Positions 8,572-62,372 of a DNA stretch of 63,879 nucleotides are shown one piece after another. This DNA comes from Chiloscyllium plagiosum. Its lineage: Eukaryota. The stretch covers positions 330,918-394,796 of the forward strand of contig NC_057754.1 of assembly GCF_004010195.1 (NCBI RefSeq), given 5' to 3'. How positions within the stretch are numbered: position 1 is the stretch's first letter; each line of letters begins with the position of its first letter. The position numbers and the translations under genes were made by a program. Below the pieces are notes generated by a model. It made no database searches. It was not told where the DNA came from and was given only the letters and a program-made list of their open reading frames with translations.

Positions 8572-8724
8572 CAGAGCTGAAAATGTGTTGCTGGAAAAGC
8601 ACAGGAAGGGCTTATGCCCGAAATGTCGATTCTCCTGTTCCCTGGATGCTGCCTGACCTGCGCTTTTCCAGCAACACATTTTCAGCTCTGATCTCCAGCA
8701 TCTGCAGACCTCACTTTCTCCTCA
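8572..8724. mobile_element. Short Penelope-like fold-back insertion (family A)
   Basis: 29-bp inverted repeat cagagctgaaaatgtgttgctggaaaagc / gcttttccagcaacacattttcagctctg; 5'-truncated hammerhead (aagggcttatgcccgaaatgtcga); flanked by direct repeat agatgatgaa. Confidence 0.75.
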
Positions 8725-8932
8725 AAGATGATGAAGAGAGCTCTGTCTAGTCAAACACTGTAGCATAGTGCTTGCAGCTAGAAAGGAGTACTAAATTAGA
8801 CTGCACATTAGTGATTAAATCACTCCAAATCAATTCCACCCAATTCATAACACACCCCAAATCAATTCCACCCAATTCATAACACACCCCAAATCAATCC
8901 CATGTCAATTCTTAACACACCCAGCAATCATA

Positions 8933-9088
8933 TTCTGGATTAGAGGTGCTGGAGGAACACAGCAGTTCAGGCAGCATCCGCGGAGCAGTAAAATCGACGT
9001 TTCGGGCAAAAGCCCTTCATCAGGAATAAAGGCAGAGAGGCTGAAGTGTGGAGAGATAAGCTAGAGGAGGGTGGAGATGGGGAGAAAT
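8933..9088 (-). mobile_element. Penelope-like pseudo-LTR fragment (family A) inserted in the left edge of the satellite
   Basis: Matches pLTR sequence at 49400-49570; contains an intact hammerhead core. Confidence 0.8.
8993..9026 (-). ncRNA. Minimal type-I hammerhead ribozyme motif, family A, intact core
   Basis: Minus strand reads UUC-CUGAUGA-A-GGGC-UUUU-GCCC-GAAA-CG-UC-GA: conserved core, 4-bp stem II, palindromic ACGU in place of helix III, GUC cleavage triplet. Confidence 0.8.
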
Positions 9089-19877: not shown

Positions 19878-22800
19878 TGTGGGTATGTGTGTGTGTGTCG
19901 CACCCAGAACAGTGAGCTCTGTGCGTGTGTCACTTAAAACACAGACCAGTGAGCTCTGTGCGTGTTTGCCAGTCGCACCCTGAGCAGTGAGCTCTGTGTC
20001 AGTCGCGCCCAGAGCAGTGAGCTCTGTGACAGTCGCAGTGAGCTCTCTGTCAGCCGCACCCTGTGTCGGTCGCATCCAGAGCAGTGAGCTCTGTGTCAGT
20101 CGCACCCAGAGCAGTGAGCTCTGTATGTGTGTCGGTCGAGTGGTGGGCTGTGCGCGCCTGTGTCAGCTGCAACCTGAGCAGTGAGCTCTGTGTCAGTCGC
20201 ACCCAGAGCAGTGAGCTCTGTGTGTCGGTTGAGCGGTGGGCTGTGCGCGCCTGTGTCAGCTGCAACCTGAGCAGTGAGCTCTGTGCGTGTGTCATTCGCA
20301 GACTGAGCAGTGAGCCTTGTGTGTGCCAGTTGCGCGGTGAGCTCTGTGTGCGCGTGTGTCAATTGCATGGTTAGCTGTGTGCGCGCGCGTGTGTGTGTCA
20401 ATTGCATGGTTAGCTGTGTGCGCGCGCGTGTGTCAATTGCATGGTTAGCTGTGTGCGCGTGCGTGTCAATTGCATGGTTAGCTGTGTGCGCGCGTGTCGG
20501 TCGCACCCTGAACAGTGAACGTTGTGCGCGCGTGTCAGTCGCACAGTGAGCTCTGTGCGCGCGTCGGTTGTGCAGTGAGCTCTGTGCATGTTTGTCAGTC
20601 GCGCAGTGAGCCTTTGTGCGCGCGTCGGTTGCGCAGTGAGCCCTGTGCGCGCGTTGGTTGCGCAGTGAGCCCTGTGCGCGCGTCGGTTGCGCAGTGAGCC
20701 CTGTGCGCGCGTCGGTCGAGCAGTGAGCCCTGTGCGCGCGTCGGTCGAGCAGTGAGCCCTGTGCGCGCGTCGGTCGCGCAGTGAGCCCTGTGCTCCTGTC
20801 GGTCGCGCAGTGAGCTCTGTGCGCCTGTCGGCCCGCAGTGAGCTCTGTGCTCCTGTCGGCCGCGGTCTGTGCATGGGTCAGTCGCGCACTGAGCCGTGAG
20901 CTCTGCGCGTCTCAGTCGCGCAGTGAGCTCAGTGTGTGTCAGTCGCGCAATGAGCTCTGTGCGTGTGTGTTAGTCACACAGTGAGTTCCGTGCGTGTCAG
21001 TCGCGCAGTGAGTTCCATGCGTGTCAGTTGCGCAGTGAGTTCCATGCATGTGTGTCAGTCGCGCAGAATGCTCTGTATGTGTGTCAATCGCACAGTGAAC
21101 TTTGCAAGTGTGTTAATCGCGCCTTGAGCTCTGCACGTGCGTGTCAGTAGGTCAATGAGCTCTGTGCGCATGTATCAGTCACTCAGTAAGCTCTGTGCGC
21201 ATTAGTCGCGCAGTGAGCTTATGCACGTGTCAGTCACGCTGTGTACTCTGCGCGTGTATCAGTCATCTGCGGAGCCGTGAGCTGTGCGTGTGTGTCAGTC
21301 ATGTGCGGAGCCATGTACTCTGCACGTGTGTGTCAGTCATGTGCGGAGTGGTGAGCTCTGCGCCTGTGATTGTTGCCTTCTGACCAGTGAGCTCTGCATT
21401 TGTGTCAGTCACGGAGTGAGCTCTCTGCGTGTTTGCCAGTCGCGCCCAGAGCAGTGAGCTCTGTGTCAGTCACGCCCAGAGCAGTGAGCTCTGTGTGTCG
21501 GTTGAGCGGTGGGCTGTGCGCGCCTGTGTCAGCTGTAACCTGAGCAGTGAGCTCTGAGCGTGTGTCATTCGCAGATTGAGCAGTGAGCGTTGTGCGTGCC
21601 AGTCGCGCGGTGAGCTCTGTGTGCGCGTGTGTCAATTGCATGGTTAGCTGTGTGTGCGTGTGTGTCAATTGTATGGTTAGCTGTGTGCGTGCATGTCGGT
21701 TGCACCCTGAACAGTGAGCGTTGTGCGCGCATGTCAGTCGCAGTGAGCTCTGTGCGCGCATTGGTCACGCAGTGAACTCTGTGCATGTTTGTCAGTCGCG
21801 CAGTGTGCTCTGTGCGTTTGTCAGTTGCATAGTGAGCTCTGTGCGTGTTTCAGTCGCGCAGTGTGCTCTGTGCGTTTGTCAGTTGCACAGTGAGCCCTGT
21901 GCGTGTTTCAGTCGCACAGCGAGCGCTGGACGCCTGTCGGTCGCTCAGTGAGCTCTGTGCGTATTTGTCAGTCGCGCGGTGAGCCCTGTGCGCGCGTCGG
22001 TCGCGCAGTGAGCCCTGTGCGCGCGTCGGTCGCGCAGTGAGCCCTGTGCGCGCGTCGCGTCGGTCGCGCAGCGAGCCCTGCGCGCGCGTCGGTCGCGCAG
22101 CGAGCCCTGCGCGCGCGTCGGTCGCGCAGCGAGCCCTGCGCGCGCGTCGGTCGCGCAGCGAGCCCTGCGCGCGCGTCGGTCGCGCAGCGAGCCCTGCGCG
22201 CGCGTCGGTCGCGCAGCGAGCCCTGCGCGCGCGTCGGTCGCGCAGCGAGCCCTGCGCGCGCGTCGGTCGCGCAGCGAGCCCTGCGCGCGCGTCGGTCGCG
22301 CAGCGAGCCCTGCGCGCGCGTCGGTCGCGCAGCGAGCCCTGCGCGCGCGTCGGTCGCGCAGCGAGCCCTGCGCGCGCGTCGGTCGCGCAGCGAGCCCTGC
22401 GCGCGCGTCGGTCGCGCAGCGAGCCCTGCGCGCGCGTCGGTCGCGCAGCGAGCCCTGCGCGCGCGTCGGTCGCGCAGCGAGCCCTGCGCGCGCGTCGGTC
22501 GCGCAGCGAGCCCTGCGCGCGCGTCGGTCGCGCAGCGAGCCCTGCGCGCGCGTCGGTCGCGCAGCGAGCCCTGCGCGCGCGTCGGTCGCGCAGCGAGCCC
22601 TGCGCGCGCGTCGGTCGCGCAGCGAGCCCTGCGCGCGCGTCGGTCGCGCAGCGAGCCCTGCGCGCGCGTCGGTCGCGCAGCGAGCCCTGCGCGCGCGTCG
22701 GTCGCGCAGCGAGCCCTGCGCGCGCGTCGGTCGCGCAGCGAGCCCTGCGCGCGCGTCGGTCGCGCAGCGAGCCCTGCGCGCGCGTCGGTCGCGCAGCGAG

Positions 22801-24097
22801 CCCTGCGCGCGCGTCGGTCGCGCAGCGAGCCCTGCGCGCGCGTCGGTCGCGCAGCGAGCCCTGCGCGCGCGTCGGTCGCGCAGCGAGCCCTGCGCGCGCG
22901 TCGGTCGCGCAGCGAGCCCTGCGCGCGCGTCGGTCGCGCAGCGAGCCCTGCGCGCGCGTCGGTCGCGCAGCGAGCCCTGCGCGCGCGTCGGTCGCGCAGC
23001 GAGCCCTGCGCGCGCGTCGGTCGCGCAGCGAGCCCTGCGCGCGCGTCGGTCGCGCAGCGAGCCCTGCGCGCGCGTCGGTCGCGCAGCGAGCCCTGCGCGC
23101 GCGTCGGTCGCGCAGCGAGCCCTGCGCGCGCGTCGGTCGCGCAGCGAGCCCTGCGCGCGCGTCGGTCGCGCAGCGAGCCCTGCGCGGGCGTCGGTCGCGC
23201 AGCGAGCCCTGCGCGGGCGTCGGTCGCGCAGCGAGCCCTGCGCGGGCGTCGGTCGCGCAGCGAGCCCTGCGCGCCCGTCGGTCGCGCAGCGAGCCCTGCG
23301 CTCCCGTCGGTCGCGCCGAGCCCTGTGCTCCCGTCGGTCGCGCAGCGAGCCCTGTGCTCCCGTCGGTCGCGCAGCGAGCCCTGTGCATCCGTCAGCGGTG
23401 GTCTGTGCATGTATCAGTCGCACTCTGATCAGTGAGCTCTCTGCCTGTTTGTCGGTCGCGCAATGAGCTTTGCGCACGGCGGTTACACGCTGAGCAGTGA
23501 GCTCTGCGCACGTGTCAGTCGCACACTGAGCAGTGAGCTCTGCGCACGTGTCAGTCGCCAACTGAACACTGAGATCTGCGCACGCGTCGGCCACACACTG
23601 AGCAGTGAGATCTGCACGTGTCGGTCGCACAGTGAGCTCTGCGCGCGTTAGTTACAACTTGAGCAGTGAGCTCTGTGCATGTGTCAGTCGTGCAGTGAGC
23701 TCTGTGTGTGTGTCAGTTGGGCAGTGAGGTGTGTGTGTCAGTCGCGCAGTGTGTTCCGTGCGTGTCAATCGCGCAGAATGTTCTGTATGTGTGTCAGTCA
23801 CACAGTGAACTTTGCAAGTGTGTCAATCTCGCCTTGCGCTCTGCACATGCGTGTCAGTCACTCAGTAAGCTCTGTGCGCGTTAGTCACGCAGTGAACTTA
23901 CGTGCATGTGTCAGTCGCGCCATGAGCTCTGCGCGTATCAGTCACTTGCAGAGTCGTGAGCTCTGCGCGTGTGTCAGTCGCACTGGTGAGCTCTGTGCCT
24001 GTGATTGTTTCCCCGACCAGTGAGCTCTGCATTTATGTCAGTCACGCAGTAAGCGCTGTGTGTGTGTTTGTGTGTGTCAGTCGCACCCTGAGCAGTG
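19878..24097. repeat. ~29-bp minisatellite domain with homogeneous CpG-rich core at ~22060-23270 (GTCGGTCGCGCAGCGAGCCCTGCGCGCGC)
   Basis: Period 29 read directly; core unit is 24/29 G+C with 8 CpG; flanking units are degenerate cagtgagctctgtgcgtgtgtcagtcgc. Confidence 0.97.
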
Positions 24098-46381: not shown

Positions 46382-46543
46382 CATTTGTTGGATGCGCTGG
46401 AAGCTCTTCCCATGGAAACTAAAGGCCTGTTCAAATAGCACTTTATCTTCTACAGTCCACTCATCCGGGAAAGGAGTGAAATTGGCCAAGTCAGCGAGAG
46501 ATTTATCAACATCATGCTTGTGCCATAAGAGCATCCCCAGTGC
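46382..46543 (-). CDS. RCOR2: RCOR2 coding exon 5 (ELM2 end and SANT1)
   Basis: [54 protein letters not shown]; acccag / gtgagc; 162 nt. Confidence 0.97.
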
Positions 46544-46689
46544 CTGGGTGGAGAAAGAGAAGGGTGAGATGGGCAGAAAGTGTACAGTGATGCATCTTGT
46601 GAGGACTACCAAGGCAATACAGCACATGATGAATGGTAGATACAAAGGATCAGAGGAACCTTGATGCGCATGTCCATAGATCATGTGGA

Positions 46690-47270
46690 ATAAGTGGTTA
46701 AGTTAGTGTATGGGATACTTGTCCAAGGCAGAACACAAGAGCTATGAGGTTAGTCAGGCCAGAGCTAATGTACAGTCTCTTCACCACACTATAGGAAGGA
46801 TATGATTGGACTAGAAAGGGTGCAGGTTAGATTCACCAGGATGCTGCCTAGGCTGGAGATTTTCAGCTATGAAAATGAACAATATAGGGAGGTGCTGTTT
46901 GCCTTGGAGCAGAGAAAGCTAAAGAGGCTATGATTGAAGTTGAAAGTAATATAAAGGAATAGGTATACACTTTTCAACTTAGTACAAGGGGCAATTATCC
47001 AGGGGCCAAAGATGTGTGATAAGGGGCATACAGTTGAGAGGGTATTTTAAGAAGAAGTTTTTTCATCCAAAGAACGGTGGGTGTCTGGAATTCACTGAAA
47101 GATGGTAGATGCAGGAATCATCACAACATTTAAGTAATATTTAAATGAACACTCAAAATGCCATAGCATACAAGACTATGTGCCAAATGCTGGGAAGGGG
47201 AAATCAGTGTAGGTAGGGGCCTGATGATGTACTAACATGGGCTGAAAGGCCTCTTTTCATGTCATAATAC
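46690..47270 (+). mobile_element. Degenerate CR1-type LINE 3' part
   Basis: ctagaaagggtgcaggttagattcaccaggatgctgccta, gggctgaaaggcct tail. Confidence 0.7.
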
Positions 47271-47623
47271 TTTATGCCTCTATGTGAGCTGGCCAGTGAG
47301 ACAGAGTGCGAGGAAAATGGAGAGTGGGTGTCTGTAGAGGGGACAGAGAAGGAACACACAGAGGGGGGCACAGAGAGGGAGTAGGGTAGAAACAAAGAGG
47401 GAGCCCATGGGTAGTGGGGAGCCCACAGAGAAAGAGAGGGACCCCTCTTGTCGAAGGGGAACAGAGAGGGAACCCACGCGTGGGGGAGCCAGGATAGGAT
47501 TTGAAGAGGAACAGACAGGGAGCCTTGGGGGGGTACAGAGAGGAGGCCTGCAGTGGGGTGCAAACACAAAGGTAACCCACGGGGGGAATCAGACAGGGAA
47601 AATCCGTGAAATCTTCACCATAC

Positions 47624-47676
47624 CTGTTCTATGTTGTACCCATGCTTCTCCTTGGCCATGGCGATATATTCATCGA
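47624..47676 (-). CDS. RCOR2: RCOR2 coding exon 4
   Basis: (L)DEYIAMAKEKHGYNIEQ; tttcag / gtatgg; 53 nt. Confidence 0.96.
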
Positions 47677-47854
47677 CTGAAAGAGAGATGTAGAGTTAGA
47701 AAAGTACACAAAACTGGGTTTGTTCCATCATATCCTGAATTCCAATATCAGTGAAAAAGAAAACTGCCTAAAAGGAAGATTCAGACAACATTCTAATATT
47801 TAGCAGTATCATATCAGAGATAATATTGAAAATTATTCAATTTTGGTCCACCAA

Positions 47855-48059
47855 AATTTGGAGGAGTTGGTGTTGGACCAGGCTGGACAAAGTTAAAAAT
47901 CACACAACACCAGATTATAGTCCAACTGGTTTATATGGAGGCATTAGCTTTCAAAGCACTGCTTCTTCATCAGGTGGTTGTCTCAAGAAGCAGCGGTTTG
48001 AAAGCTGGTGCCTCCAAATAAACCAGTTGAACTATAACCTGGTGTTATATGATTTTTAA
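47855..48059. mobile_element. Fold-back Penelope-like insertion (family B) with two opposed hammerhead motifs
   Basis: Inverted arms; TSD tttggtccaccaa at 47842-47854 and 48060-48072; minus-strand CAC-CUGAUGA-A-GAAGC-AGU-GCUUU-GAAA-GC-UA at ~47943-47976. Confidence 0.8.
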
Positions 48060-48206
48060 TTTGGTCCACCAAGATTAGTTTATTTGCTAGCTATTTCTTT
48101 AATTAGTTCCTTTATTAGTTCTCTTTCTCTGCAAATTTTCTATTGGCTATTTTTCTCTCTCTGTGATTAGCCCGTTTGATTGTATTGTTTTAATCTCTCT
48201 CTGTGT

Positions 48207-48338
48207 CATAGAGTCATAGAGATGTACAGCACGGAAACAGACCCTTCGGTCCAACCCGTCCATGTCGACCAGTTATCCCAACCCAATCTAGTCCCACCTG
48301 CCAGCACCGGGCCCATATCCCTCCAAACCCTTTCTATT
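48207..48338 (-). mobile_element. CR1-type LINE 3' tail only
   Basis: catagagtcatagagatgtacagcacggaaacagacccttcggtccaac. Confidence 0.75.
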
Positions 48339-48531
48339 CGTGACTGGCCTTCCCATCACCTCTCTTTCTGCGACTGGCCTACCCATTGCTCTTCTCTCTC
48401 AACAAATGGTTTACCAATCACGCCTTGCTCCCCCTCACTCTCTTCCTCTGTCTCTCTCTCTCTATTAGTGGCTGATCCATCGGCACACTCTCTCTGTGAC
48501 TGACCTAGCCATCGCTTCTTGGATTTGGTGC

Positions 48532-48668
48532 CAACATTCCCTCTAAGCAGTGCAGACATGCATGCAGCTGCTCCAGTGTTCCACGCATGTTGATCACTTC
48601 TGGAAGTTGTGGCCACATACAGGCCTCAGAGGCCCACACAGCCAGTAAGGAAGTTAGAGGGAATGCTG
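48532..48668. mobile_element. Small hAT-like MITE, 137 bp
   Basis: TIRs caacattccctctaa / ttagagggaatgctg (14 of 15 match); 8-bp flanks only partly match. Confidence 0.5.
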
Positions 48669-49179
48669 ATTGACACGCCATCTAACATCCACAACTTTCA
48701 CTCCTTTCATCACTGATACACAGTGCTGTCACAGTGTATCATCTGATACACTGCAATAACTCACTAAGATTCCTTCAACAACCAGCACCTTTCAAATCTG
48801 TGACTTCTGCCAGTGAGAAAGGCTAGAGCAGTAGGTATCACCATCAGCTGCAAGATCCTCTCCAAGCCACACACTATCCTGATTTGGAACTAACACTGAT
48901 TATTCGTGGTCACTAGGTCAAGCCTGGATATTCAACCCTAATAGCACTGTGGGTGCCCTGAAACCTCAAAAACTACAACAGTTGAAAACTGCAATATTTC
49001 ACCATCACCTTCTCTAGGGTAATTAATACTGGCATAGCTAGTGACATCCATATCCCAATAATGAATTTACTTCTGACACCATGTCAATAATCAAGCTGAA
49101 GTTCTTTTCTATTTTAGATCAGATCCAGGGAAGCTGAATTTTCCTTATTGAAATTGAGATCCTCACCAACAACACTTAC

Positions 49180-49260
49180 GTTTTGCATCAGAAATGTTGT
49201 GGTTGGGAGACCATACCAACATGCCCTTTGTATCCTTCTCACTGAAACGGGCAGCACTGT
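49180..49260 (-). CDS. RCOR2: RCOR2 coding exon 3 (ELM2)
   Basis: (D)[26 protein letters not shown](L); ttatag / gtaagt; 81 nt. Confidence 0.96.
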
Positions 49261-49467
49261 CTATAAAAATACAAATAGAAGTTCAGCTGTAAATAAGAAC
49301 ATTACACATGCTGCATTACTTATTGGAGAATAAGGAAAATTATCACATGGTTGCCCAAGCTATCTCTGTGGTAAAAACAAGGACTGCAGATGCTGTAAAA
49401 CCAGAGTCTAGGTTAGAGTGGTGCTGGGAAAGCACAGCAGGTCAGGCAGCATCCGAGGAGCAGGAAG

Positions 49468-49501
49468 ATCGACGTTTCGGGCAAAAGCCCTTCATCAGGA
49501 A
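49468..49501 (-). ncRNA. Minimal hammerhead ribozyme motif, family A, intact core
   Basis: UUC-CUGAUGA-A-GGGC-UUUU-GCCC-GAAA-CG-UC-GA on - strand, sense to RCOR2 intron 2. Confidence 0.8.
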
Positions 49502-49637
49502 TAGAGGCAGGGTGCCTGTAGATTGGAGAGATAAATGAGAGGGGGTGTGGGGGTGGGGAGAAAGTAGCATAGAGTACAATAGGTGAATGGGGGTGAGGAT
49601 GGAGGTGATAGGTCAGAGAGGAGGGTGGGAGAAGGTA

Positions 49638-50068
49638 NNNNNNNNNNNNNNNNNNNNNNNNNNNNNNNNNNNNNNNNNNNNNNNNNNNNNNNNNNNNNNN
49701 NNNNNNNNNNNNNNNNNNNNNNNNNNNNNNNNNNNNNNNNNNNNNNNNNNNNNNNNNNNNNNNNNNNNNNNNNNNNNNNNNNNNNNNNNNNNNNNNNNNN
49801 NNNNNNNNNNNNNNNNNNNNNNNNNNNNNNNNNNNNNNNNNNNNNNNNNNNNNNNNNNNNNNNNNNNNNNNNNNNNNNNNNNNNNNNNNNNNNNNNNNNN
49901 NNNNNNNNNNNNNNNNNNNNNNNNNNNNNNNNNNNNNNNNNNNNNNNNNNNNNNNNNNNNNNNNNNNNNNNNNNNNNNNNNNNNNNNNNNNNNNNNNNNN
50001 NNNNNNNNNNNNNNNNNNNNNNNNNNNNNNNNNNNNNNNNNNNNNNNNNNNNNNNNNNNNNNNNNNNN
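49638..50068. other. Assembly gap (431 N)
   Basis: Run of N. Confidence 1.
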
Positions 50069-51265
50069 TCGGATGATGTGGTTTATGCGAAGGTTGGTAG
50101 GGTGGAAGGTGAGCACCAGGGGGGTTCTGTCCTTGTTACGGTTGGAGGGGTGGGGTTTGAGGGCGGAAGGGTGGGATGTGGACGAGATGCGTTGGAGGGC
50201 ATCTTTAATCACATGGGAAGGGAAATTGCGGTCTCTAAAGGAGGCCATCTGGTGTCTGTGGTGGAACTGGTCCTCCTGGGAGCAGATACGGCGGAGGTGG
50301 AGGAATTGGGAATACGGGATGGCATTTTTACAGGAGGTAGGGTGGGAAAGAGGTGTAATCCAGGTATCTGTGGGAGTCGGTGGGTTTGTAAAAAATGTCA
50401 GTGTCAAGTCGGTCGTCATTAATAGAGTTGGAGAGGTCCACCCCCACCCTCTTCTGATTTATCTCTCCACTCTGCTGGCACTCTGCCTCTATTCCTAATG
50501 AAGGGCTTTTGCCCAAAACGTCAATTTTCCTGCTCCTAGGATGCTGCCTGACCTGCTGTGCTTTCCCAGCACCACTCTAATCTAGACTCAAGCTATCTCT
50601 GTGCCCTGAGAATTCTCTTTTCTTGAACTTTCCATGTCAGTTTATTTATCTGTCTGTGCCATTAACTAATGGGATTTCTGTAACATTAAGTTTCTCATTA
50701 TGTAGATGGCACTTATTAAAGGATATTTTAGTTGATTCCTGAGGGAGAAGGGAAGCCACCTCAGTGTGCATTGAGAGGTAAATGTCTGAGCATGTAATGT
50801 TGCAGGGGGAGCTCTGTGCCCTGACTGAACATGGTGTACTGTTTTGTGTCTGCAATAATCTCCTCAGGAACAGGTTGGGGCCTGTCATACTCCACCAATC
50901 AATGAAATCATGGTTGACGTACATCCTAATTTTATCTACTTGCCTAGTTTCTGTAACTCATAAATAGTTTTTTTTTTGGTGTTAACAATCAATCTCAGTT
51001 CTGAAATTTTTAATTGATTCTCCACATCCTCAACTGTACTTTGGGACGTTTTAGATTTCCACCAGCCTTTTTGTAACCCCCTCAATCACCTAGCTCGAAC
51101 TTTAAATGTCTGTCCCCTTGTTCTGCATTCCCCCATCAAACAGCAAAGTTTCTCTAACTACCTGATCAATCTCTTCAACTATCTTAAACCTTTTCAATCA
51201 GATTACCTTTAATCTTCTCATCACACTTTCTCAGAATTTATCCCAAAGAACGCTGTAAACTGTGT

Positions 51266-51477
51266 CATTTGGAGAACTGGGGTGTACAAAGTTAAAAATC
51301 ACACAACACCAGGTTATAGTCCAACAGGTTTAATTGGAAGCACTAGCTTTGGGAGCGCTGCTCCTTCATCGGGTGGTTGTAATCCACAACCACCTGATGA
51401 AGGAGCGACGCTCCGAAAGCTAGTGCTTCCAATTAAACCTGTTGGACTATAACCTGGTGTTGTATGACTTTTAACTT
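51266..51477. mobile_element. Fold-back Penelope-like insertion (family B), ~95-bp inverted arms
   Basis: Arms 51286-51380 and 51386-51480 separated by aatcc; TSD tgtaaactgtgt at 51254-51265 and 51478-51489. Confidence 0.85.
51391..51425 (+). ncRNA. Minimal hammerhead ribozyme motif, family B, intact
   Basis: CAC-CUGAUGA-A-GGAGC-GAC-GCUCC-GAAA-GC-UA-GUG: stem I CAC/GUG, 5-bp stem II, palindromic AGCU, predicted cleavage after A51422. Confidence 0.85.
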
Positions 51478-51957
51478 TGTAAACTGTGTGGGCACTCAAC
51501 AATATGAAGCCCTGCTCAGGCCACAAACATGTTGCCCCTATCACCCTAACATGTTTTAGTCCTGGATTCATCTTGTACAATTTATCTTTTCTGGGGCACA
51601 GCATTGAATGCAGTGTCAGACATGATCTACCTAGGATTTTAAGTAAACTTTCTCCCCATTTGTTCTCCTTGTGTTCTTCACATTAGCCTTTTTAATGGTT
51701 TTTCTAGTCACCCAGATAAAATGTGTGAAGTTGAACTTTATATTCTCACATCTATGACAATCATTTTGCCTTGACAAACCTGCATCACAAGTGTACAAAA
51801 GCCAGGTAAACAAGGAAAGGCAGAAACGTCTCCTGAATTTGTCTATTGCCACTTCTTCATTGTGGCTTTTGTTCCACACAAGTTACTCATTATAGCAAGT
51901 ATCTTGCACATCTCAATACTAACATAAGCATGGCCTGTTAACAGACAGAAATTGTAC

Positions 51958-52014
51958 CTGGATGACATTCTGGAACAACAGCTTGGTAATCGGATCCAAC
52001 CCGGATCATACTGT
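51958..52014 (-). CDS. RCOR2: RCOR2 coding exon 2 (ELM2 start)
   Basis: (D)SMIRVGSDYQAVVPECHP; ctttag / gtacaa; 57 nt. Confidence 0.96.
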
Positions 52015-52154
52015 CTAAAGTAGAGAAAAAGCAAGACATAATATTCAGAAAAAATCAAGTAGTTAAATATGGAGTAGGAAATTTTGAGCGGATGGGGAGA
52101 CCGTTGAAGAAATGTAAAATTGTGGGATTTCATCCCAATGACAATCAAACATAT

Positions 52155-52650
52155 GGAGAGGAGTTGGCAAGGTGAGGCTTGGAGACATGCAATTAGCATC
52201 ACAGAGGAGTGGGCAAGGTGAGACCCTGTAACAGGCAGTCAGTGTCTCTGAGAGGAGCGGGTGAAATGAGGACCATGTGACAGGCAATCAGCATCACTGA
52301 GAGAAGCGGGCGAAGTGAGGACTGTGTGACAGGCAGTTGGTGTCACTGAGGGGAGCGGATGAAGCATGAACTCTGTGACAGGCAGTTTGTGTCATTGAGA
52401 GGAGCGGGTGACGTGAGGACCATGTGACAGGCAGTCAGCATCACTGAGAGGAGCAGGTGAGGTGAGGACTCTGACAGGCAATTTGTGTCACTAGAGGAAA
52501 GTGTGAGGTGAGGACCCTGTAACGGTGAGTCAGCGTCACTGAGAGGAGTGGGTGAGGTGAGGACCCTGTAACAGTGAGTCAGCATCACTGAGAGGAGAGT
52601 GTGAGGCGAGGACCCTGTAACAGTGAGTCAGCATCACTGAGAGGAGCGTT
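52155..52650. repeat. ~49-bp minisatellite (cagcatcactgagaggagcgggtgaggtgaggaccctgtaacagtgagt), about 10 copies
   Basis: Period 49 read directly. Confidence 0.9.
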
Positions 52651-53419: not shown

Positions 53420-54965
53420 GTGATATGGACTTAAATGCAGGCAGTATGACTAAGTTTGCAGGTTACACAAAGAATGTTAGGGATAGACATAAACTGCAGT
53501 GGCAAATGGAAGTCAACCCGGAAAAATGTGAGGTGATGCAATTGGGGAGGGCTACTAATGCAAGGGATTGCATTATGAATGAAAAAATCGACGTTTGTAG
53601 AGATAAATGTAGGGGGGTGGTGGTGTAGCAGGAAAATCAACGTATCGAGCAAAAGCCCTTCATCAGAAATGAGGCTAAGCCCTTCATCAGGAATAAGAGT
53701 AGGAAAATTGCATTTATCTCTCCACCTCTGAGGCTCCCAGCCTCATTCCTGATGAAGGGCTTTTGCCCAAAATGTCGATTTTCTTGCTCCTCGGATGCTG
53801 CCTGACCTGATGTGCTTTTCCTGCACCACACTCTCAACTCTAATCTCCAGCATCAGCAGTACTCACTTTTGCCTAGTTGATTTTAACCTTACTGCGAATC
53901 CTCTTCCAAGGGTGCCTACCTCGAAGAAGTTCTACTCCTCTCTCTACAAGGAACGCAGTGAGTCTGGAATCCCCAGGTCATCTCCTCTGCCCTGAAGCTC
54001 TTCAGCCACATTCTGGATCAGACTCACCCATCTATCCATCTTCCTTCCCACCTATCCACTCCACCCTCCCCTCTGACCTATCACCTTTACCCTCACCTCC
54101 ACCCAGCTATTGCACTCTCAGCTACCATCCCTCCCAGCTCCACCCCCTCCCATTTATCTCTCCACCCATGAGGCTCCCAGCATCTTTCCTGATGGAGAGT
54201 TTTTGCCCGAAATGCCGAGTATCCTGCTCCTCGGATGCTGCCTGACCTGCAGTGCTTTTCCAGCATCACACTCTCGACTTGCATTATGAATGGTAGAACC
54301 CTGAAAAATACAGAAGATCAAAGATACCATCCTGTGCATATCCACAGACTCCTGATGGTAGCAGATGGTTAAGAAGGCATATGGAATACTTTCCTTTTTT
54401 AGCAGAGCCATAGAATAAAAGATCAAGGATGCTAACTTGGAACTGTTCAAGATGCAATTAGAGTACTGCATGAATTTTGGTCACCATATTATAGGAAGAA
54501 TGAGATTGTACTGGAAAGGATACAGAGAAGATTTACCAAGATGCTGCCTGGGCTGGAGTATCTGAACTATTAGGAAAGATTTGATAGGTGGGGTTGTTTT
54601 CCTTAGATTAATGAAGATTGAGGCGACATGATAGGAAGGAACTATGAGGGCATAGAGAGGGTGGGTAATCAGGCACTTTAATAACGGAGAGGAGGGCATA
54701 GATTTAAGAGTTAGAAAGTGAGAGGAAAGTTTAAGTAATTTTTTTCTCTCAGAGGATGGTGAGGGACTCATACTCACTGCCTGAAAGTGTGGTTGAGTTA
54801 GAAACTCTTGTAATATTTGAGAAATATTTAGACATTCACTTGTATTACAACAGTCTCCAGGGCTATGGGTCAGTAACTGGGAAGTGGATTAGTGTAGTTA
54901 GATCTGTGGACTACTGTGAACACGATGGGCTTAATGGCTTCTTCTATTTTGTAAAGGTCTAAGAG
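53420..54965 (+). mobile_element. Degenerate CR1-type LINE interrupted by a Penelope-like insertion
   Basis: WQMEVNPEKCEVMQLGR remnant; resumes after 54292. Confidence 0.75.
53582..54278 (+). mobile_element. Penelope-like insertion (family A): scrambled inverted pieces plus two tandem pLTRs with mutated hammerheads
   Basis: TSD ttgcattatgaatg at 53568-53581 and 54279-54292; motifs at ~53635(-), 53748(+), 54188(+). Confidence 0.85.
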
Positions 54966-61459: not shown

Positions 61460-62372
61460 TAAGTTAGAATGGACATGTCATGGGGGAAGTGGGAGAGGGA
61501 GTTGAAATGGATGGTTACAGGAAGGTGGGGTTGGTTGGTGCATATGGACCAGACATGTTCCCTGAACTGTTCTGAGAGTTTGTACTCATCTCCCAAATGT
61601 AGAGAAAACCACATCGAAAACAACGGATGCAGTAAATGAGGTTCGAGGATATGCAGGTACATCTCTGCCGGATTTGGAGTGATCCCTTGGGCGCCCACAC
61701 CTTCCCCCCTACCTTTGTCCAAGGCCTCAGAAGATCATTCCAAAACCAGCAGAAATTTACGTGCATATCCTCAAACCTCATTTACTCCACCTGTTGCTCT
61801 CAATGTGGTCTCCTCTACATTGGAAACAGTTCAGGAAACATCTCTGGCCAGTATGCATCAACCAACCCAACTTTCCTGTAGCCATCCATTTCAACTTCCA
61901 CCACCTAATCAAGGTCACCCGCAAACTGAGGAGGAACATCTCATCTTCCACTTCAGGAGCCTACAACTACATGGCATCAACACTGAATTTATCAGTTTCC
62001 AAATTTCCCCTCTCCTCCCCCCACCCCCATGCCAGATCTAACCCTCCGACTCAGCTCTGCCTTTTGACCTGACCTACCTGTTCATCTTCCTTCCTACTTG
62101 GCCACTCCACACTTCCCATCAACCTGTCACAATCACATCCTACCTTCGCCACCAATTGCCCTTCCAAATACCTTTCCCCTAGACTACCCCTCCATTTATT
62201 TCTCAGCCCCCTTCCCCCTCCCCCCTCTCCCTCTCCAGTCCTGACAAAGGGTTAAGCCCGAAACGTTGATTCTCTTGTTCCTCAGATGCTGCCTAACCTG
62301 CTATGCTTTTTCCAGCGCCACATTTTATTGGCAGTGACTACTCCAGCAGTTGTAGTCCTCACTGTCTCCTAG
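61460..62372 (+). mobile_element. Penelope-like element 3' part (GIY-YIG endonuclease remnant and pLTR) with an inverted GIY-YIG segment at 61460-61685
   Basis: FTCISSNLIYSTCCSQCGLLYIG on +, CTCISSNLIYCIRCFRCGFLYIWE on -; degenerate hammerhead ctgacaaagggttaagcccgaaacgttga at ~62241. Confidence 0.85.

Follow-up and report, generated by a model that had tools for sequence, protein, structure and literature searches.

Two hammerhead-bearing fold-backs in introns of a CoREST-like shark gene as probable insertions of a Penelope-like terminus

We consider two short fold-back insertions, E1 (47855-48059) and E2 (51266-51477), in a 63,879-nt stretch of Chiloscyllium plagiosum DNA, which as a whole is called the window. 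Most probably, both are dead-on-arrival insertions of the terminus of a Penelope-like element (PLE), here family B, and their hairpin is built anew each time. Their layout is the published layout of PLE insertions and not that of a new self-copying ribozyme element. This reading is based on what is observed here (the anatomy, the target-site duplications (TSDs), the tail asymmetry, the junction diversity, the longer upstream copies and the family-level polyadenylation) and on four papers (PMC8557442, PMC3846280, PMC4209133 and PMC11167929). The parts of the two insertions, of a neighbouring PLE insertion and of the host gene are as follows.

46382-52018, minus strand: host gene, CoREST/RCOR-like by its ELM2 and SANT exons (Pfam ELM2 E 3e-6; Myb E 6e-4 and 2e-5)
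47842-47854, no strand: E1 left TSD copy, 13 bp, an exact direct repeat of 48060-48072
47855-47892, minus strand: E1 tail, 38 nt, confined to the left arm in the arm alignment
47893-47981, minus strand: E1 long (tail-bearing) arm, a PLE-type terminus with its sense on the minus strand
47945-47973, minus strand: E1-left minimal hammerhead, which retains the core but has G-U in place of G10.1-C11.1 and a mismatch in stem I
47982-47984, no strand: E1 centre, 3 nt
47985-48059, plus strand: E1 short arm, 5'-truncated within the hammerhead core, without CUGAUG, with AATAAA
48060-48072, no strand: E1 right TSD copy, in register agreement with the start of the tail at 8 of the first 11 positions
49356-50603, minus strand: family A PLE insertion (for comparison, not family B), with a 15-bp TSD, 149-nt inverted arms and a 34-nt tail on one arm
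49638-50068: assembly gap inside the family A insertion
50072-50410: reverse transcriptase (RT) C-terminal fragment within the family A insertion
51254-51265, no strand: E2 left TSD copy, 12 bp, an exact repeat of 51478-51489
51266-51288, minus strand: E2 tail, 23 nt; 11 nt longer at this site in organism B
51289-51380, minus strand: E2 long arm, with a hammerhead (51372-51344) carrying U4C and G12C and a poly(A) hexamer (51334-51329)
51378-51385, no strand: E2 centre, a 3-nt microhomology common to both arms (51378-51380) and a 5-nt loop
51383-51477, plus strand: E2 short arm
51391-51425, plus strand: E2-right hammerhead, intact minimal type I (motif at 51394-51422), from the motif search with the anatomy of PMC4209133
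51478-51489, no strand: E2 right TSD copy, identical to the start of the tail over the first 4 bases

The two fold-backs reported by the initial annotation are real, each within its exact TSD. The arms align over 84 nt at 87% complementarity in E1 and over 99 nt at 93% in E2, which together with the exact flanking repeats is far beyond chance. The same annotation had them consist only of two inverted termini, and this does not hold, as each left arm carries an additional tail, of 38 nt in E1 and of 23 nt in E2 (34 nt when the 11 nt retained by the orthologous copy of organism B are counted). The tail of 34-38 nt is thus on one arm; the other ends at the TSD, and there is some homology there to the beginning of the tail. 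The outermost bases do not form an inverted repeat. The E2 insertion is present in organism B too, so that no pre-insertion allele is seen at the E2 site examined. The centre junctions of the two copies differ, as had been noted; the left arms nonetheless end at the same base, an end-point that had gone unremarked. The 3-nt centre of E1 is either filler or the remnant of an E2-like junction with a deletion, and the 5-nt loop of E2 is the upstream sequence of the short arm with one mismatch (a 23-nt opposite-strand match ending at 51400, and loose ends behind 51380). No ORF of at least 150 aa among the open reading frames of the window overlaps E1 or E2, in agreement with the first description, and the right arm of E2 has stops within 32 codons in all three sense frames.

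A hammerhead had been assigned to every arm, and of the four motifs only E2-right is intact, with a stem I of 3 bp, CUGAUGA plus an extra A, a stem II of 5 bp, GAAA, a palindromic AGCU and a predicted cut site after 51422. The other three are damaged. E1-right starts inside the core and is missing CUGAUG, in E1-left the G10.1-C11.1 pair and one pair of stem I are gone, and E2-left has U4C and G12C, which are private to it because nearly all family reads carry the other, intact base at these positions. The poly(A) hexamer of E1-left is changed as well. Selection against a host-sense hammerhead and poly(A) signal was considered for the core changes of E2-left and the hexamer change of E1-left, and was set aside with two copies only. 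The hammerhead assignment follows the motif anatomy in PMC4209133; a Rfam search up to E=1 matched no hammerhead family. Its sub-threshold microRNA match, MIR2084 (44 bits against a cut-off of 100), was rejected as it reflects the long hairpin only.

The predicted hairpins have energies of -104 to -159 kcal/mol, computed for the actual sequences only. The initial annotation expected arm pairing to compete with ribozyme folding, and in silico the hairpin wins, since forcing the hammerhead fold costs 54 kcal/mol and the unpaired probability of the core is at most 0.002. Because the single sense hammerhead is preceded by its own antisense strand, transcript self-cleavage or release of a unit RNA would not be expected, and retrozyme-like excision is unlikely with one sense hammerhead per transcript, buried in the hairpin.

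We turn to family B in the reads. The family is very high-copy and mostly continues into longer upstream sequence, with 413 of 2,747 RNA reads running from 51380 into the common upstream sequence. The summed depth across the E2 junction is 1,072, against 561,596 in a bin inside the arm, in read set X1, and 2,522 against 956,506 in read set X13; the E2-type junction is therefore rare, at about 0.2-0.3% of the adjacent arm depth; a summed depth does not measure copy number, the contigs are broken at branch points, and part of the joints and loose ends went uncounted. Opposite-strand joints are found at at least 10 coordinate pairs, each in 1-8 contigs per run, with the joint 51343-51400 left out of the count as an alignment effect of a short inverted overlap in the reference; there are 41 further joints beyond those listed. 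The contig ends fall into two classes, one loose at 51286-51291 and the other continuing into the tail at 51276, and the flanks of the short ends are AT-rich. Whether junctions are shared or unique had been proposed as a check. The many differing junctions favour an inversion product, and there are also a few contigs with centres within 1-2 nt of that of E2; together with the common end base of the left arms, these contigs mean that there is either a hotspot for junctions or a small unit subfamily.

The poly(A) signal of the arm is used in vivo at the family level, with polyadenylation within the arm in 1,294 of the 2,747 RNA reads. The raw RNA run, a poly(A) single-cell library, has no reads on the unique flank of E2, which has no bearing on E2 expression, and no piled molecule ends are listed in it, which is uninformative on cleavage or circles. 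Among the 40 of 154 rows listed for editing-type sites, four of five A>G and two of three T>C have their excess on the strand expected; the imbalance is just as strong at C>T and G>A sites, so that copy variation accounts for the bias equally well. Exact family B words have 0 matches in viral, metagenome and prokaryote contigs, and neither an ORF of family B nor an autonomous partner turned up in these contigs or in the window. In the window, the upstream motif has one match at 3 mismatches (0.96 expected by chance), and tandem copies of family B are absent. The family may represent the end of a non-autonomous derivative.

Both insertions are intronic, E2 between about 51956 and 49255 and E1 between about 49185 and 47676, in a gene that appears to be CoREST/RCOR-like, a name read from the domain order, with the exon peptides located by motif. 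The intron of E2 also holds the RT-bearing family A insertion, which shares the one-sided-tail layout. Three shark proteins, two of which have an RT domain, match the family A fragment at 87-88% identity, and a 909-aa RT and GIY-YIG protein matches it at 44%, so that the RT and GIY-YIG association of this neighbour is known via homologues only. Direct Pfam and PDB searches with family A fragments gave nothing, and an Atlas match at 0.84 is a lead only.

The same layout exists in many unrelated families. Among the metagenome matches listed, hammerhead fold-backs with a TSD of at least 10 bp and the tail geometry are 18 of 35, against 0 of 47 controls. In a search whose pattern forced centres of 5-35 nt, centres vary within families (17 distinct among the 19 listed loci of the largest group), and two recurring centres, in different subfamilies with unrelated flanks, fall on one 4-nt palindrome. 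In 17 chosen loci, the TSD-to-tail microhomology has a mean of 1.35 nt; shuffles give 0.35, and none of 10,000 reaches the observed value. Microhomology is absent from 7 of the 17 loci. The suggestion of a stereotyped product of PLE 5' inversion is thus supported by the tail asymmetry, the 12-15-bp TSDs, the many junctions and the recurrence of the layout on the RT-bearing neighbour and in these families. The competing suggestion of a retrozyme-like unit family finds no support, as most copies extend upstream of the E2 junction, centres vary within families and retrozymes are direct tandem repeats.

How would such a fold-back be built? A PLE endonuclease would nick the target strands 12-13 nt apart, which gives the TSD. 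Reverse transcription of one and the same terminal region of the element RNA would then start from both 3'-OH ends, where a distal start site yields the tailed arm and a proximal one the tail-less arm, aided by a few bases of target homology. Both cDNAs would stop after about 75-130 nt, near the hammerhead, and their 3' ends would be joined bluntly, with filler or at a short inverted microhomology into the head-to-head fold-back. The hammerheads and poly(A) signals would be passengers from the pseudo-LTR. For family B, everything after the nicking, together with the identity of the mobilising RT, is what we infer. With the Poseidon element of Anolis carolinensis (PAc) in vitro, both target strands are cut and extended and two start sites bound the tail (PMC11167929); initiation there is without homology to the cut DNA, which counts against homology-aided priming.

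The same PLE origin may be combined with a different making of the mirror arm, by self-priming, in which a cDNA or an antisense template folds back on itself at a short palindrome, or by later homogenisation through gene conversion, which we regard as unlikely. Self-priming from palindromes at inverted junctions has been proposed (PMC3846280), and the centres are often on short palindromes, with an overlap of 1-4 nt in 6 of 15 among the matches listed; the other 9, however, are blunt or have unmatched bases. The two E1 arms share 6 variants that both E2 arms are without, which would also fit self-priming or arm-to-arm conversion and to this extent speaks against two-strand priming. The E2 loop, on the other hand, is part of the tail-less arm, and the cDNA of that arm could not have served as a template for the tail, so that the loop is not the product expected of a tailed-cDNA fold-back. 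Polarity is known for five of the metagenome loci listed: the tail arm extends further upstream in two of them and the short arm in another two, and in one neither does. The cutting and extension of both strands in vitro likewise argues against self-priming.

Could the whole of about 200 bp, or a subset with the E1/E2 centre, be a non-autonomous unit whose transcript a PLE enzyme re-inserts in full, in a retrozyme- or SINE-like way? This is quite improbable. The common end base of the left arms, an E1 centre readable as the E2 junction with a later deletion, the few contigs with near-identical centres and, among the metagenome matches listed, near-identical centres at unrelated sites (L002/L065, L050/L094 and L001/L101) speak for it. 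The rarity of the E2-type junction speaks against it, and the centres that recur lie at microhomology and are spread over different subfamilies. The short end of each copy is tailored to its own TSD, and each transcript has a single, sequestered sense hammerhead, while minimal hammerheads need a tandem partner (PMC4209133).

A DNA-transposon MITE with hammerhead-like sequence by chance in its terminal inverted repeats can be given hardly any credence, although E1 and E2 are short, ORF-less and very high in copy number with inverted arms. MITEs have a fixed, superfamily-specific short TSD. Here the TSD length varies (12 and 13 bp, and 10-16 bp in the metagenome loci listed), as do the centres, and copies extend into longer upstream sequence; the asymmetric ends with a one-sided tail and without symmetric terminal inverted repeats already contradict a MITE.

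With insertions of a PLE terminus as the preferred reading, such stubs can be mistaken for MITEs, microRNA hairpins or new ribozyme elements, and, being so numerous, they form a natural data set for the still unsettled PLE integration mechanism. The arm that bears the tail and the loop, and the target homology needed by the short end, separate dual priming from self-priming. If host transcripts were shortened at stub poly(A) signals or edited on the hairpins, the stubs would be a sizeable force on shark transcriptomes. A more speculative and rather doubtful proposal is that a hairpin subset, fixed at the microhomology junction of E2 (perhaps E1), is re-copied whole by a PLE enzyme and acts as intronic poly(A) and dsRNA elements. 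If true, ready-made hairpins at such a very high copy number would put two-directional poly(A) signals and dsRNA substrates into shark introns, and one insertion step would fill the role of inverted Alu pairs in primates.

Finally, we compare E1 and E2 with the known systems. In LINE-1 twin priming, reportedly described by Ostertag and Kazazian in 2001, non-overlapping pieces of one RNA are said to be copied from both target strands, with an inverted junction within one TSD. Our model shares the two-strand priming and the inverted junction inside a single TSD; both E1/E2 arms, in contrast, copy the same terminal segment. Non-LTR retrozymes (PMC7229834; bioRxiv 10.64898/2026.07.22.740005) are, like E1 and E2, ORF-less, hammerhead-bearing and related to PLE pseudo-LTRs, but their units stand in direct tandem, all their hammerheads point the same way and unit RNAs can be released, whereas the E1 and E2 arms are inverted pairs with one sense motif per strand. 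The minimal hammerheads of metazoan PLEs include dual motifs 100-700 bp apart on opposite strands (PMC4209133). With these the motifs here share type I, the extra base between A9 and G10.1, the G10.1-C11.1 pair, the palindromic helix III region and the opposite-strand pairing of motifs; they differ in cores only about 20 nt apart, in a stem I of 3 bp and a stem II of 5 bp, and in the damage to three of four. PAc (PMC11167929) has, like family B, two 3'-end classes that bound the tail downstream of the hammerhead, and the AT-rich flanks of the short end are a further likeness. Its ORF begins at the ATG of the hammerhead, whereas the same frame stops at codon 9 in family B, and the natural short ends of family B have modest target homology where none is reported for PAc in vitro. 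The closest likeness is to the complex insertions of EN+ PLEs, an inverted 5'-truncated copy with a one-sided tail of 30-40 bp (PMC8557442; PMC3846280), such as Pen2a_Av with its 9-bp TSD, 31-bp tail and head-to-head junction (PMC3846280). The halves of E1 and E2 are only about 75-130 nt with no ORF left, and their TSDs are 12-13 bp against 8-10 in the published cases; all the same, they have the minimal terminal hammerhead, the head-to-head termini of an inverted 5'-truncated copy, a tail of 34-38 nt at one end, a palindrome or overlap at the junction, a TSD of variable length (13 and 12 bp) and, in their family, variable 5' truncation with longer copies.

We begin with the two hammerhead-bearing fold-backs of about 200 bp, E1 and E2, the only copies of family B (their Penelope-like, PLE, terminus family) that a BLAST of the window returns:

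47855-48059: E1, fold-back, 84-nt arms at 87% complementarity, exact 13-bp target-site duplication (TSD)
51266-51477: E2, fold-back, 99-nt arms at 93% complementarity, exact 12-bp TSD

In a four-arm alignment the left arms carry a tail (38 nt in E1, 23 nt in E2) that is absent from the right arms, whose end is in both elements the start of the TSD. The TSD resembles the start of the tail, exactly over the first 4 bases in E2 and at 8 of 11 positions in register in E1. E2-right holds the sole intact hammerhead: E2-left has the changes U4C and G12C, E1-left has stem defects, and the E1-right arm starts within the core. An Rfam search of E1 and E2 matched none of these four motifs. The private changes of E2-left both lie in the core (51344-51372) as read on the host-gene sense strand, and on that strand E1-left is without the AATAAA (47930-47940) that E1-right has; with two copies, such losses of core or hexamer may be chance.

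Minus-strand exon peptides match ELM2 (Pfam E 3e-6) and Myb/SANT (Pfam E 6e-4 and 2e-5), which puts E1 and E2 in two consecutive introns of a probable CoREST/RCOR-like gene. A tandem array of 49-nt period (52157-52500) lies directly upstream of the ELM2 exon, and a long GC-rich array at about 20000-23700, built of roughly 29-nt units and reaching a GC content of 0.74, gives many spurious open frames.

For comparison, we examine a separate PLE family, family A, with an insertion in E2's intron:

49371-50588 (49356-50603 with TSDs): family A insertion, 15-bp TSD, 149-nt inverted arms, 34-nt one-sided tail

It contains an assembly gap of 431 N and encloses an ORF fragment, the C-terminal part of a reverse transcriptase (RT), with 87-88% identity to three proteins named for Chiloscyllium punctatum and 44% to a 909-aa protein with RT plus GIY-YIG; longer relatives gave 10 matches among 48 candidates, RT proteins included. 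The window is vertebrate DNA, and the identity to the C. punctatum proteins makes a carpet shark or a near relative its likely source. Since this ORF-bearing PLE has the same layout of inverted arms and one-sided tail, a special mini-element would be unnecessary. PMC8557442 likewise describes the typical PLE insertion as an inverted 5'-truncated copy with a one-sided 30-40-bp tail, and PMC9977147 gives new PLE insertions a median of 128 bp.

Other family A pieces lie in the window. A short degraded fold-back at 53595-53870 keeps remnants of back-to-back hammerheads, contains a minor internal duplication and is the source of a weak Rfam mir-627 match. Termini at 8605-8720 and 8926-9084 have their 3' ends facing across about 200 nt with short tandem repeats. 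An old family A-like piece (61497-62370) holds a GIY-YIG-like peptide at about 61760-61830 with no Pfam match; its inverted segment (61497-61684) mirrors the piece's own 5' part (61733-61899) and not the 3' terminus, a different kind of inversion from the terminus fold-backs.

We turn to the sequencing reads, examined for window segment 51000-51400 in 4 runs of 24. Family B is very abundant, with 70,827 and 70,405 matching contigs in two DNA runs. Summed depth is 1,072 at 51382 versus 561,596 in bin 51364-51377 in run X1, and 2,522 versus 956,506 in run X13; a common upstream sequence follows past 51380 in 413 of the 2,747 raw RNA reads, as it does in 21 contigs from run X15. One X15 contig (record 21; 2,693 nt, depth 192) starts with a family B arm and continues in the sense direction, and could be a pseudo-LTR followed by the element body. 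Loose ends lead either from 51286-51291 into unrelated, mostly AT-rich flanks or from 51276 into the tail. With one alignment effect removed, opposite-strand joints occupy at least 10 coordinate pairs among the joints listed (1-8 contigs per run each), 41 further joints lying beyond those listed and some being uncounted. A second organism, organism B, carries the E2 insertion with 11 nt more tail, so E2 is older than their split and its 23-nt tail reflects a later deletion.

Of the 2,747 RNA reads, 831 + 463 (1,294) open with poly(T) at 51314 or 51317, 12-15 nt past the poly(A) signal hexamer at 51334-51329. The depth of first mates is 425 at 51316 but 1,254 at 51317, where DNA depth is flat. 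The family B arms thus provide, at family level, a poly(A) site used in vivo; no RNA reads fall on E2's flank, and the poly(A) reads derive from other copies. The DNA-run loose ends compared with this site are the top ones of their list. Because genomic copies run beyond it, the insertion template was presumably a read-through RNA.

A pattern search for back-to-back hammerhead cores in public metagenomes returned at least 119 loci (L001-L119); all counts from it are among the matches listed. At least one arm passed a minimal-hammerhead filter in 59 of the 119, and the 54 of these with independent flanks fall into at least 27 similarity groups. Where flank sufficed, a direct repeat of at least 10 bp was found in 22/35 loci, 18/35 in short-end-plus-tail geometry, versus 2/47 and 0/47 for the pattern matches failing the filter. 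The largest group has 17 different centres (arm-arm junctions) among 19 loci, and in eight smaller groups every centre differs; two recurring centres share one 4-nt palindrome, with different subfamilies and flanks. For 15 of the 19, 6 junctions overlap by 1-4 nt, 4 are blunt (2 of them defining the reference) and 5 have unmatched bases. In 17 loci (20 minus one duplicate and two complex), TSDs are 10-16 bp and tails 27-61 nt; mean exact TSD-to-tail homology is 1.35 nt versus 0.35 in shuffles (0/10,000 as high), and 7 loci have none. Fold-backs of this kind, TSD and tail included, thus occur commonly among the eukaryote-like contigs of public metagenomes.

How might these structures arise? According to PMC11167929, a PLE protein in purified form can both cut the two target strands and extend them; its synthesis begins at either of two internal positions, which bound the tail, and does not require hammerhead cleavage. 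We propose that reverse transcription would be primed on both target strands, that both cDNAs would stop early, and that their ends would be joined into a head-to-head fold-back. This would account for the TSD and for a tail on one side only, as well as for the segment that both arms have in common and the variety of centres. Upstream sequence in reads makes E2's centre a 3-nt overlap between arms and assigns its 5-nt loop to the tail-less arm, a polarity that does not fit the self-priming proposed in PMC3846280 as the maker of a mirror arm, although palindromic centres and 6 variants common to both E1 arms do fit it. Against reading the hairpins as newly built, the left arms of E1 and E2 end at the same base, and centres at most 1-2 nt from E2's occur in 1-4 contigs per run.

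The initial annotation also offered a retrozyme-like unit, the fold-back being mobile as a whole. We argue against this: any transcript has a single sense hammerhead with its antisense ahead of it, and in predicted folding, forcing that hammerhead costs 54 kcal/mol, and the probability of finding its core unpaired is at most 0.002. In the experiments of PMC4209133, monomeric minimal hammerheads gave no cleavage, and retrozymes are described as tandem direct repeats (PMC7229834; bioRxiv 10.64898/2026.07.22.740005).

The pair had been likened to MITEs (defined in PMC8969392). Our literature search, with Repbase, Dfam and paper supplements outside it, found no description of shark family B. E1 and E2 are real insertions and a fresh example of an already described PLE type: their hammerhead is minimal type I, the form that PMC4209133 describes for metazoan PLEs, recording among them pairs of minimal hammerheads on opposite strands, 100-700 bp apart.
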